A stretch of DNA of 9,690 bases from a virus (taxonomy: Duplodnaviria > Heunggongvirae > Uroviricota > Caudoviricetes). The position numbers were made by a program, and so were the translations under genes. Positions 6,403 to 7,952 of this stretch are shown here, in pieces. Location: the IMG/VR virus record IMGVR_UViG_2551306491_000022; one strand, given 5' to 3'. How positions within the stretch are numbered: the first letter of the stretch is position 1; each line of letters begins with the position of its first letter. A model generated the notes under the pieces. That model saw nothing but the letters and a program-made list of their open reading frames with translations, did not search any database and was not told the origin of the DNA.

Positions 6403-6485
6403 GGTGTAAGACACAATGTAAAATAACGGTGTCTTACACGTCAACCCTTCAAAATATTTTTTTTTCGTGTATATTGTCTTACACC
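6403..6485 (+). promoter_or_regulatory. Operator array and promoter of RHH module 1: three copies of GTGT-N3-ACAC palindrome
   Basis: GGTGTAAGACAC (6403-6414, inverted orientation), GGTGTCTTACACG (6428-6440), TTGTCTTACACC (6474-6485). Candidate -35 TTCAAA (6448-6453) and -10 TATATT (6470-6475) with 16-nt spacer. The third operator overlaps the -10 and start site. Confidence 0.5.
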
Positions 6486-6505
6486 AAAAACATGAGGGGT
6501 TAAAC

Positions 6506-6685
6506 ATGGCAACGGGGCCAAAGAATGCAAAATCACAATCTGTAACTGCACGTATTGCCCATGAAATTATTGAAGGCATGGAGAACGTGAAAGAAGAAGG
6601 TGAAAGCACGGGGCAGTTTATAAACGCAGCCATGCGCGGCGAAATCAAACGCCGCCAGCGTCGCAAGGCCAAAGAATCAGAATAA
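6506..6685 (+). CDS. Ribbon-helix-helix (CopG/Arc/MetJ-like) DNA-binding protein, 59 aa; putative repressor of module 1
   Basis: ATG at 6506 with GAGGGG 6 nt upstream (track start 6467 is GTG and would include the operator). Sequence KSQSVTARIAHEIIEGMENVKEEGESTGQFINAAMRGEI fits the RHH pattern of beta-strand, helix, G-x-S/T turn, helix, with a basic tail. Confidence 0.55.
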   Translation: MATGPKNAKSQSVTARIAHEIIEGMENVKEEGESTGQFINAAMRGEIKRRQRRKAKESE

Positions 6686-6690
6686 TCACT

Positions 6691-6734
6691 ATCAGCGCCG
6701 TGGTGTGAGGTACTACGGCGCATTGCTTTACAGG
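6691..6734 (+). repeat. Conserved 44-bp element with internal hairpin (copy 1), between the RHH gene and the downstream small gene
   Basis: ATCAGCGCCGTGGTGTGAGGTACTACGGCGCATTGCTTTACAGG is 43/44 identical to 7369-7412. Stem GCGCCGT(6695-6701) / ACGGCGC(6715-6721) with a 13-nt loop; the single difference is in the loop. Confidence 0.6.
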
Positions 6735-6742
6735 GCAGTATC

Positions 6743-6970
6743 ATGACCAACAACACACTATCACCAATACAAGACACGCAGACGCAAGAAGATGAAATCA
6801 TTCGGCAAAGGCAGTTAGAAACCTGTGCTCGCCTTGAAGCCGAACTGGCTAATCCTCTGAATATCCAACTAATACCGATAGAAATGAAACCTGGACTATT
6901 CGCGTTGGAGGCATTTTTAGCAAGCTGCCCACGGCGGCTAAAGTCCCGTAAGAATCGCCCGCCAGGATGA
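6743..6970 (+). CDS. Hypothetical small protein (75 aa), partner gene of RHH module 1
   Basis: ATG at 6743 with AGGG 7 nt upstream. N-terminus MTNNTLSPIQDTQTQ resembles MTNKESTDTPSQKT of the gene at 7421. TGA at 6968-6970. Confidence 0.45.
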   Translation: MTNNTLSPIQDTQTQEDEIIRQRQLETCARLEAELANPLNIQLIPIEMKPGLFALEAFLASCPRRLKSRKNRPPG

Positions 6971-7089
6971 GTACACAAAACCGAACTATGAAACGGATTA
7001 TTCCGTTTCCGGGGCGTTTGTGTGTGTATAAAGAGTAAGCTATGCTCTTTTATAGCCATAATCGTTACCTCAATTAATGGTTTGGTTAG

Positions 7090-7131
7090 ACGCCCCATAT
7101 GTGAGCCACCACTGCGGGGCGTTGTTTTTTG
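7090..7131 (+). terminator. Intrinsic terminator ending RHH module 1
   Basis: CGCCCC(7091-7096)...GGGGCG(7116-7121) stem followed by TTGTTTTTTG (7122-7131). Confidence 0.6.
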
Positions 7132-7147
7132 TATAACGGTAAGTACA

Positions 7148-7191
7148 ATGGTAATTACCATGTAACTATAGTAATTAAGGGTAATTACCAT
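7148..7191 (+). promoter_or_regulatory. Operator pair of RHH module 2: palindrome GGTAATTACC x2
   Basis: ATGGTAATTACCAT (7148-7161) is a perfect 14-bp palindrome. The second copy GGTAATTACC (7180-7189) sits between the Shine-Dalgarno and the ATG of the RHH gene. Centres are 30 bp apart. Candidate -10 TATAGT (7167-7172) lies between the two sites. Confidence 0.5.
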
Positions 7192-7363
7192 GTCAACACC
7201 ATTGGAAAAGCGATCGCCTCCATACCAAATGCGGCTACCAGAAGAATTCAGAGCACAACTTGAAGAGGCAGCGAAAGCAGACGGTGACACTTCTTTAGCC
7301 ACCTGGATCAAGCGAGTACTCCGAAAAGAATTACAGCAACGCGGTATTGAACCCAAAGGATAA
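7190..7363 (+). CDS. Arc-like ribbon-helix-helix DNA-binding protein, 57 aa (below the length cutoff of the ORF track); putative repressor of module 2
   Basis: ATG 7190 to TAA 7361-7363, Shine-Dalgarno AAGGG. Translation MSTPLEKRSPPYQMRLPEEFRAQLEEAAKADGDTSLATWIKRVLRKELQQRGIEPKG has the Arc/Mnt-type RHH pattern. The operator palindrome overlaps its start. Confidence 0.55.
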   Translation: MSTPLEKRSPPYQMRLPEEFRAQLEEAAKADGDTSLATWIKRVLRKELQQRGIEPKG

Positions 7364-7368
7364 AAAAC

Positions 7369-7412
7369 ATCAGCGCCGTGGCGTGAGGTACTACGGCGCA
7401 TTGCTTTACAGG
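7369..7412 (+). repeat. Conserved 44-bp element with internal hairpin (copy 2)
   Basis: ATCAGCGCCGTGGCGTGAGGTACTACGGCGCATTGCTTTACAGG, 43/44 identical to 6691-6734, at the same position relative to the RHH stop and the downstream ATG. Confidence 0.6.
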
Positions 7413-7420
7413 TACACACA

Positions 7421-7624
7421 ATGACCAATAAAGAATCAACCGATACACCATCGCAAAAAACGAACAGAGAGCACGAAAATATGGCGCTCGAGCATGAATC
7501 AGAAAGATTCGCACCATGCGCTTTTGTCCTTGATGAGTTTCTAAAAAAATATTCACGTTCTGAACGGATGAAAATGGCAGCACAATACGGCCCCAACAAG
7601 AAAGATAATTGCCCACCAGCCTGA
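7421..7624 (+). CDS. Hypothetical small protein (67 aa), partner gene of RHH module 2
   Basis: ATG at 7421 with AGGT 7 nt upstream; TGA at 7622-7624. N-terminal similarity to the 6743 gene product. Confidence 0.45.
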   Translation: MTNKESTDTPSQKTNREHENMALEHESERFAPCAFVLDEFLKKYSRSERMKMAAQYGPNKKDNCPPA

Positions 7625-7691
7625 TCGCGGTTATCATGCCCAAGCTTATGATTGTTGACACATACGGCGCAGCGGGTTAATTGTTCAGAAA

Positions 7692-7720
7692 GGTGGCTCC
7701 ATTTCGGGGCCGCTTTTTTT
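7692..7720 (+). terminator. Intrinsic terminator between the convergent plus-strand module 2 and alpA
   Basis: GGTGGCTCC(7692-7700), loop ATTTC, GGGGCCGC(7706-7713), then TTTTTTT(7714-7720). Stem includes G-U pairs. An A-run on the other side could allow weak bidirectional action. Confidence 0.6.
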
Positions 7721-7745
7721 ATGTTCATCATTTGCCCTATATATG

Positions 7746-7952
7746 TTAAGCGGTCGTTCCGCGCGCTTCTTGTTCTCGTTCTTTCATCCATGCGATTACG
7801 TCTTCCTCATACCATCCGCGACGGCGCAAACCGACACGAAAACCCTGCGGGAATTCTCCGGCGTTGATCATGCTTTGCAGCGTGCTGTCTGCCTTAATGT
7901 GGATAAGTTTTTTTACTTCCTGGCGAAAGATGACTTTTTTGATTGCTTCCAT
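7746..7952 (-). CDS. alpA: AlpA-family transcriptional regulator (phage excisionase-like DNA-binding protein)
   Basis: 68-aa ORF, ATG with GAGGT upstream. FRQEVKKLIHIKADSTLQSMINAGEFPQGFRVGLRRRGWYEEDVIAWMKER fits the AlpA pattern (R.EV....G.S.ST.Y.....G.FP.P.K.G.R...W...EV..W). Position next to a P4-type integrase is typical. Confidence 0.8.
   Translation of the reverse strand: MEAIKKVIFRQEVKKLIHIKADSTLQSMINAGEFPQGFRVGLRRRGWYEEDVIAWMKEREQEARGTTA

Follow-up and report, generated by a model that had tools for sequence, protein, structure and literature searches.

An intercistronic stem-loop between ribbon-helix-helix and partner genes of Escherichia coli phage satellites as a candidate cis-acting RNA element

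The window analysed here, that is the whole 9,690-nt stretch of IMG/VR virus record IMGVR_UViG_2551306491_000022, is an Escherichia coli phage satellite of the phage-inducible chromosomal island (PICI) type, and it carries two tandem modules on the + strand. In each module, operators and promoters are followed by a gene for a ribbon-helix-helix (RHH) protein, a hairpin and a small partner gene. The hairpin belongs to a 44-nt sequence (the 44-mer, or the element) that is present almost unchanged in both modules and is the subject of this work. The genes and the two copies of the element are located as follows:

6506 to 6685, + strand: RHH1, a 59-aa ribbon-helix-helix protein of the YlcI/YnfO family (NCBIfam NF041551, YlcI_YnfO_N, 5e-18; phrog_949, 1e-18).
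6691 to 6734, + strand: copy 1 of the 44-mer, with its hairpin at 6695-6721; a 9-nt spacer separates the hairpin from the RHH1 stop codon (6683-6685), and a 21-nt leader with an AGGG Shine-Dalgarno sequence separates it from the partner-1 ATG at 6743.
6743 to 6970, + strand: partner 1, 75 aa with the C-terminus ...PRRLKSRKNRPPG, a distant paralogue of partner 2.
7190 to 7363, + strand: RHH2, a 57-aa Arc-like ribbon-helix-helix protein (Pfam Arc, 0.008; phrog_228, Arc-like repressor, 5e-7; YlcI_YnfO_N, 5e-4).
7369 to 7412, + strand: copy 2 of the 44-mer, with its hairpin at 7373-7399; as in copy 1, the hairpin is 9 nt away from the RHH stop codon (7361-7363, RHH2) and 21 nt away from the partner ATG (7421, partner 2).
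7421 to 7624, + strand: partner 2, 67 aa with the conserved core HESERFAPCAF (phrog_21027, function unknown).

The first-pass annotation of this sequence described a near-identical repeat with a single loop difference between diverged flanks, and both parts of that description hold. Reading of the sequence and a repeat finder (repeat family D1) gave the same bases at 43 of the 44 positions (97.7%), the sole mismatch being T6704 in copy 1, which is C in copy 2; by an arithmetic estimate, a 44-mer repeated with one mismatch is expected by chance in 9.7 kb at a level of ~1e-17. Beyond the 44-mer, identity decays to 81% over 75 nt. The coding sequences of RHH1 and RHH2 are 52.8% identical and those of the two partners 53.8%, against ~48% for shuffled sequences, and the operator/promoter regions of the two modules share 33% identity, which is the shuffled value. 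At the protein level, 15 of 61 aligned positions are common to the RHH pair and 20 of 87 to the partner pair. The assignment of the upstream genes to the RHH class, made earlier from the letters alone, agrees with the NCBIfam, PHROG and Pfam matches given above. Neither partner had a credible Pfam, NCBIfam or PADLOC family, and no toxin family could be assigned to them: partner 1 matched no family, and partner 2 gave weak Cas8-type matches that were below threshold (17.6 bits vs a curated cut-off of 125). As no toxin family was found, and the single family placement of the partners is phrog_21027, a type II toxin-antitoxin operon is not supported as an identity for the modules.

Both copies of the element contain the 7-bp core stem GCGCCGT/ACGGCGC already pointed out in the first-pass annotation, and RNAfold extends it in each of them. 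The fold of copy 1 has an 11-bp stem closed by a 5-nt loop, with an energy of -24.3 kcal/mol over 71 nt; in copy 2 the stem is 9 bp and the loop 9 nt, and both folds are built on the 7-bp GC core. An AGG or AGGG Shine-Dalgarno sequence lies 8-9 nt ahead of each partner ATG, as had been noticed. The tail 3' of the stem, ATTGCTTTAC, is only weakly T-rich, in agreement with the previous judgement that it is not U-rich enough for a strong terminator; a lenient terminator scan called copy 1 terminator-like, but not copy 2.

A covariance model of the element collected 38 distinct versions, a shallow sample that comprises Escherichia and Shigella and is rich in recombinants; applied to about 200 loci, the model found only a handful of extra diverged copies. 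In these 38 versions 89.5% of the stem cells are paired, four pairs are changed on both sides, and slid controls pair far worse. The same helix was found independently by RNAalifold. The non-Watson-Crick cells of the 7-bp core are distributed unequally between the strands, with 11 that form G·U on the + strand, and would be A·C on the other, against one of the opposite kind; by our own count this bias corresponds to roughly seven independent events vs one. Two variants were especially informative: the copy in locus L208 has three wobble-preserving transitions in the stem, and that in locus L040 has an altered 3' arm and still forms 9 bp. Copy 1 of the window is more stable than its shuffles on the + strand (z = -3.1) and not on the - strand (z = -0.9), and the - strand fold of copy 2 is no better than shuffles (z = -1.6). 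Because most variants of the stem can still pair through G·U on the + strand, and a few changes are compensatory, an RNA hairpin on the + strand is favoured, at a divergence that is too shallow for proof.

These data bear directly on a function for the opposite strand, where the element could pause or terminate the transcription that reads through from alpA to icd, a block to be overcome by translation of the long antisense frame described below, as in P4 eta, or by AlpA antitermination, as in Pseudomonas. In copy 2, and in other modules whose RHH protein is of the IEPKG type, the - strand hairpin is followed by UGAUGUUUUUUAU, and there are precedents for this kind of control: translation of eta prevents termination in the P4 immunity region (PMC10111431), and the Pseudomonas AlpA is reported to be a processive antiterminator. 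However, the wobble bias is 11:1 for the + strand, and those G·U pairs become A·C on the - strand; the - strand U-run lies 5 nt off the stem and is missing in most RHH-type contexts (e.g. UGAUAGUGAUUAUUC and UGGUGAUGGUUACU), and the - strand folds do not exceed their shuffles. A role of the element on the - strand is for these reasons very unlikely.

The element is widespread in E. coli. We found 3046 copies, mostly 90-95% identical, in 1694 of 5426 complete genomes (~31%), with a median of one and a maximum of 8 copies per positive genome, although these collections are redundant and the counts do not represent independent events. The model island EcCICFT073 also carries the RHH-hairpin-partner module, oriented opposite to the rest of the island (L216 8417-8473, equivalent to NC_004431.1 ~1380416-1380472, complementary strand). 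The possibility raised in the first-pass annotation, that homologous modules of related elements lack the sequence, is contradicted by its presence in EcCICFT073 and in those 1694 genomes. On the other side, the element was absent from 50,697 phage genomes, and the 8 plasmid records that contain it are all from Escherichia. Rfam returned no match to the element at E <= 10 within positions 6200-7760, permissive thresholds included, and neither C4/CI antisense RNA nor isrK was matched by Rfam anywhere in the window. The element was also ruled out as a repetitive extragenic palindromic (REP) sequence or a bacterial interspersed mosaic element (BIME), as it is not dispersed across the chromosome and all of the inspected copies lie in satellite-type islands.

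Every inspected E. coli copy follows the stop codon of a YlcI/YnfO RHH gene and precedes a small gene, and the islands are all of the same type. Among ~210 fetched loci, most of them retrieved by patterns or models that were derived from the element or from close relatives, we observed the element after every RHH gene that is followed by a partner-family open reading frame (ORF) (179/179), and after none of the RHH genes in RHH-only modules (14/14 without it). The linkage extends to partner-like genes with no RHH gene upstream, which are still preceded by the element in L126 (twice in a row) and L128 (once). The element is kept in 19 loci, all of one lineage, where an AT-rich cargo insertion took the place of the partner, and a diverged element stands ahead of a small lipoprotein-like gene in L040.

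These replacements deserve a brief description. In L127, L010 and related loci, ~330 nt past the element, the partner is replaced directly after ...ATTGCTATG by the AT-rich insert, which encodes a predicted membrane protein of ~130-180 aa (MNLKKIATN...) and breaks the antisense frame; it may represent accessory or defence cargo. The lipoprotein-like gene, of 47-50 aa (..LLISCFEKN.. or ..LLKSCISEK..), can replace the partner after the RHH gene in the second module of the E. coli locus L040 (3'-ward of 4021-4069) and in the Pectobacterium locus L214 (2690-2833), and the hairpin is present in the E. coli version only.

Outside E. coli the parts of the module have different distributions. Partner homologues numbered 10 in 5.8 billion proteins, all of them from E. 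coli, and a partner-based scan of one genome per species was positive for Shigella flexneri alone. RHH homologues are spread across Enterobacterales, and the element was not found downstream of them in four other genera. In Yersinia, a strong intrinsic terminator lies 3 nt after the stop codon of the RHH homologue, which indicates that this position is a natural transcript boundary; in Citrobacter, a weak and different stem-loop follows the RHH gene and the partner gene is absent. Thus, the element is a feature of the Escherichia lineage that is tied to the RHH-partner junction.

The two modules are surrounded by, and overlap with, the following features:

6113 to 6313, - strand: icd-like gene, whose product is similar to the host cell division inhibitor Icd (NF033153, 6e-18).
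6304 to 7806, - strand: stop-free antisense frame of 501 codons; the ORF from its first ATG, at 7791, encodes 496 aa; the frame shares sequence with the 3' end of alpA and extends 10 nt into icd.
6335 to 6388, + strand: copy 1 of a second repeated hairpin (family D2), terminator-like on the + strand (z = -3.7) and placed, on the - strand, in the icd 5' leader.
6396 to 6485, no strand assigned: control region of module 1, with three GTGTAAGACAC half-sites at 6404-6414, 6429-6439 and 6475-6485.
7010 to 7071, - strand: remnant of a second icd start (Shine-Dalgarno 7068-7071, ATG 7059, encoding MAIKEHSLLFIHTQT...), in frame with the long antisense frame; boundary of a tandem duplication.
7082 to 7135, + strand: copy 2 of the D2 hairpin, 80% identical to copy 1 and placed to terminate the module-1 + strand transcript.
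7148 to 7196, no strand assigned: control region of module 2, with ATGGTAATTACCAT palindromes at 7148-7161 and 7178-7191 and a related site at 7168-7177.
7686 to 7722, + strand: hairpin and T-run (GGCTCCATTTCGGGGCCGCTTTTTTT), the probable terminator of the module-2 transcript, with weak Rfam terminator-type matches at 7689-7724.
7746 to 7952, - strand: AlpA-like helix-turn-helix regulator or excisionase.

The D2 repeats, accompanied by related stretches at 6264-6285 and 7010-7031, and the remnant icd start at ATG 7059 show a tandem duplication of the whole unit, comprising the icd 5' end, the D2 hairpin, the operators, the RHH gene, the 44-mer and the partner; two copies of the 44-mer are present in the window because of this event. 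The two-module arrangement is common to at least 41 genomes. The nearest annotated relative is 95.8% identical over 1561 nt and forms part of a ~9.5-kb island beside tRNA-Pro and yejM, with the gene order integrase, AlpA-like helix-turn-helix protein, four small + strand genes, Icd-like protein, DUF4222, RepA-family helicase, PerC and a ClpP/major-capsid fusion. This order matches the Integration/Bro/Replication/Late layout described for Gram-negative PICIs (PMC10111431).

In both modules the operators overlap divergent promoter-like sites. Module 1 has two of these sites on the + strand toward RHH1 and one on the - strand (TTGACG-18-TACATT) toward icd. In module 2 the palindromes are overlapped by a - strand promoter-like site, TTGACA-17-TACTAT (10/12 matches). 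Since the GTGTAAGACAC and ATGGTAATTACCAT operators differ, the two modules would have different DNA specificities. This organization suggests that the RHH proteins are allele-specific repressors controlling icd and the replication operon, and makes them candidates for the repressor that is missing from the description of Gram-negative PICIs.

The geometry of the junction is fixed. In every variant read, 9 nt lie between the RHH stop codon and the stem, and 21 nt between the stem and the downstream ATG. In the window both modules and both hairpins lie inside the 501-codon antisense frame, and the frame through the element is open in 123 of 123 independent instances, with a median of 333 codons (range 190-765) as compared with medians of 31 and 18 for the other frames. 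In 188 of 196 untruncated cases this frame has its stop codon in common with icd, runs into icd or stops within 60 nt of this gene. Islands of Citrobacter, Enterobacter, Yersinia and Pectobacterium contain the frame as well; the loci beyond the window in which it was seen include L002-L004, L125-L133 and L211-L214. The 496-aa ORF matched no Pfam, NCBIfam or PHROG family. As an open antisense frame bars frameshifting indels across the module, it partly explains the fixed spacing and also why all four + strand genes share one phase.

The common phase is relevant to another explanation, a coding or recoding constraint, according to which the element would either stimulate read-through of the RHH stop, joining the RHH protein to the partner, or encode a conserved peptide (CKAMRRSTSRHGAD) in the antisense frame. 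In the window the RHH gene, the spacer and the partner are indeed in one frame with a TAA stop alone between them, and the 9 nt from stop to hairpin, as read from the sequence, resembles the spacing of known read-through signals. Nevertheless, common variants of the hairpin have in-frame TAA or TGA codons inside it (GAG TAA CTA, CCG TGA TGT), so that no general fusion can be formed and read-through was rejected, while the shared frame and the fixed spacing result from the bar on frameshifting indels. As for the antisense peptide, the variable sites fall at ~5:5:2 over the third, second and first antisense codon positions by our own count, with no synonymous excess, and the ORF lacks a family match. 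We therefore consider a coding constraint extremely unlikely.

The interpretation that we prefer, with a probability of about 40%, is that the 44-mer is an intercistronic stem-loop that uncouples the expression of RHH and partner, acting as a 3' barrier, a leaky terminator or a processing site, by which more RHH repressor than partner protein would be made. The 44-mer would be the core of a fixed 57-nt cassette in the + strand RHH-partner transcript that acts in cis as RNA and is composed of the 9-nt spacer, a 27-nt GC-rich stem-loop and the 21-nt leader with a weak partner Shine-Dalgarno sequence. A ribosome that terminates at the RHH stop codon would leave the stem-loop just outside its footprint, on the 3' side, where the structure would provide the RHH message with a 3' barrier by leaky termination or by stopping exonucleases. 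RNase E has a preference for RN↓WUU, and the conserved single-stranded GC↓AUU located directly 3' of the stem fits it; this is a plausible cleavage point of the RNase E type, and cleavage there would leave a partner cistron that is less stable and less translated. A single promoter could in this manner yield a net excess of RHH repressor. The two copies would be near identical because the cassette is the sole constant part of a module with otherwise diverged and freely reassorted RHH, operator and partner alleles. The sequences show the presence and distribution of the element, the strand that its stem prefers, its fixed geometry and its linkage to partner genes; from them we infer that transcripts are terminated or processed there and that the ratio of the two proteins is shifted.

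Several results weigh against this interpretation, or restrict it. The U-tract, AUUGCUUUA, is poor, with 2 U in its first 5 positions, and diverged copies in which the hairpin persists have lost it (ACUGGGUUA in L208 and GCAAUCAUA in L040), which makes classical termination unlikely as the conserved function; among the features of an intrinsic terminator, the GC-rich stem-loop is present (7-bp core extended to 9-11 bp) and a conserved U-tract is not. For the same reason a true attenuator, as put forward in the first-pass annotation, is doubtful; a + strand RNA hairpin is nevertheless favoured on account of the 11:1 wobble bias and some compensatory pairs. The structural evidence has its own weak points: the RNAalifold covariation term is thin (-0.29), ~11 cells of the 7-bp core are unpaired whichever strand is considered, and the stem of L125 contains three mismatches in a row. 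The high conservation of the element could in part reflect recent shared ancestry. Furthermore, in Enterobacter and Pectobacterium a second gene abuts the RHH gene with no hairpin in between. Finally, the loop AG and the CAUUGC motif are conserved in sequence, more than a plain barrier hairpin requires, and this hints at a specific ligand.

The latter point is a reason to consider a specific RNA recognition site, in which the hairpin (loop RAG(G/U), 3' CAUUGC) would be bound by a protein, or would form a kissing loop between the RHH-partner mRNA and the alpA-to-icd transcript that aids the island switch. The binder could be the partner or the RHH protein, which often have Arg/Lys-rich tails, or a host factor such as ProQ or CsrA; the GAGG loop might also attract a ribosome. 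Many RHH C-termini do read KRRQRRKAKE, and many partners contain RKRRRRK; these tails, however, are not universal, as RHH2 ends in IEPKG and partner 2 has no Arg run, and both have the element. For CsrA in particular, conserved GGA motifs are lacking. In favor of a kissing loop, the module is wholly antisense to a translated-looking frame, so that sense-antisense pairing would be unavoidable if both strands are transcribed, and the - strand loop CUCA/CUUA, as read from the sequence, fits the YUNR motif. But cis-antisense pairs are complementary by construction and need no conservation across islands, and the complementarity between the element and D2 does not exceed that of shuffles. Taken together, recognition by a specific ligand is an unlikely account of the element, even though it would explain the loop bases.

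Other candidates for the action of the element were discarded. Duplex energies between the element and the D2 hairpin were within the shuffle range on both strands (z -1.4 to +0.1), which leaves no signal for a P4-like RNA-RNA pairing of the 44-mer with D2, and no inverted copy of the element was found in the window. A second helix, CAUUG/CAAUG, that would hide the partner start codon exists in several variants and is lost in L131-133, L208 and type-3 partners. CsrA-type GGA sites and a boxA-like reading of UGCUUUACA are not conserved across variants.

A further explanation dispenses with RNA function. The element would be a recombination linker, that is, a patch of homology for crossovers between RHH/operator and partner alleles, kept uniform by recombinants or gene conversion. 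It is in keeping with this idea that RHH 3' ends and partner types occur in all combinations, and that the loop haplotype follows the partner type and the 5' spacer the RHH type, so that many breakpoints would fall in the 5' arm. The module swapping anticipated in the first-pass annotation is supported insofar as RHH and partner alleles are pervasively reassorted around the element; yet breakpoints are not confined to it, as mosaic joints are also found within partner genes (e.g. L200, L204). Moreover, recombination requires a conserved patch but does not make one, and a neutral 44-nt spacer amid ~50% diverged alleles should diverge; instead, the changes in the stem are skewed to preserve + strand pairing. 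The island is rich in Chi sites, with 8 vs 0.23 expected from shuffles, a point in favor of a linker. Chi acts with a polarity, and the conserved Chi at the partner 3' end faces alpA and int, away from the hairpin, so that Chi was rejected as the driver of exchange at this point. On balance, we find it unlikely that the element is only a linker.

As to their location, the Chi sites (GCTGGTGG) lie at positions 1209, 1381, 3449, 3475, 4213, 5437, 7613 and 8521 of the 9.7 kb. The one at 7613-7620 (- strand) is within the last codons of partner 2, and CCACCAGC is conserved ~220-260 nt downstream of the element in most modules.

Conserved boundary linker sequences occur at mosaic joints in lambdoid phages, and they resemble the element in being short intergenic patches flanked by highly diverged alleles in many combinations. 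In contrast to them, the element folds and its substitutions preserve pairing on one strand, which speaks for a function beyond supplying homology. Closer to our preferred interpretation are the intercistronic stem-loops that set differential expression within operons, such as the REP hairpins in malEFG, the processing of papBA and the puf operon of Rhodobacter. In common with these, the element would place a stable hairpin right after the upstream cistron, with AU-rich single-stranded RNA on its 3' side and more of the upstream product expected; unlike them, it is not REP, it is restricted to one satellite-island module and it is conserved in sequence besides structure, and its processing is a prediction. 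The tR1 terminator of lambda, located after cro, is a leaky terminator or attenuator between a regulator gene and a downstream gene. Similarly, the GC-rich hairpin of the element lies a few nt past a small repressor gene and ahead of another gene for which lower expression would be expected, and the Yersinia homologue has a true terminator there. The element differs from tR1 in its weak U-tract, which is not conserved in diverged copies, and features of the nut, boxA or boxB type were not established for it.

With respect to satellites, the immunity region of P4 comprises the nested eta/kil genes and the CI RNA with its seqA/seqC targets (PMC10111431). The modules studied here occupy the same slot, between the alpA/vis homologue and the replication genes; likewise, a long alpA-coupled frame runs into a kil/icd-like gene and contains short repeated structured sequences. 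In contrast to P4, matches to C4/CI and isrK are absent, no complementarity links the repeats to another repeat, the place of the RNA repressor is taken by a counter-oriented protein module (RHH and partner) with DNA operators, and the favoured strand of the hairpin is opposite to eta.

Elsewhere in the window, three iteron-like repeats (TTTTAGTGCCCACTTTTT, 83-85 nt spacing) and an inverted pair are located at 3777-3963, just past the end of the RepA-helicase gene, and this is probably the replication origin of the island. A 42-nt direct repeat is present at 438-479 and 2976-3017 (79% identical; ATAAAA..AAAAATGCGC.TTTTTCCGCGCC), downstream of the capsid-fusion gene and of a gene for a protein similar to single-stranded DNA-binding protein, respectively, and may be a shared terminator.

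In a wider context, Gram-negative PICIs have been described as unidirectionally transcribed, with a global repressor that is unclear (PMC6092414), and our search of the literature found no paper on the RHH-partner module or its hairpin. It is tempting to speculate, at rather low odds, that these islands have their missing immunity switch in the counter-oriented RHH-hairpin-partner unit: the RHH protein would shut the icd/replication promoter through allele-specific operators, and the hairpin would be a conserved RNA control point, be it a site of processing, of ligand binding or of sense-antisense kissing. If this were true, the hairpin would set the amount of the partner, possibly an anti-repressor or co-factor, and hence the time at which the island fires.

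In summary, the hairpin taken alone is a modest finding, a cis element without annotation that is specific to one lineage and belongs to the familiar intercistronic stem-loops; its 44 nt are also a handy marker for finding such modules. Its setting matters more: an allele-diverse RHH/operator module that is antisense within an eta/kil-like frame, in EcCICFT073 and in ~31% of the complete E. coli genomes. A diversifying RHH/operator pair, combined with a constant hairpin and partner, provides a testable hypothesis for how these satellites may be kept silent and avoid cross-talk between islands.

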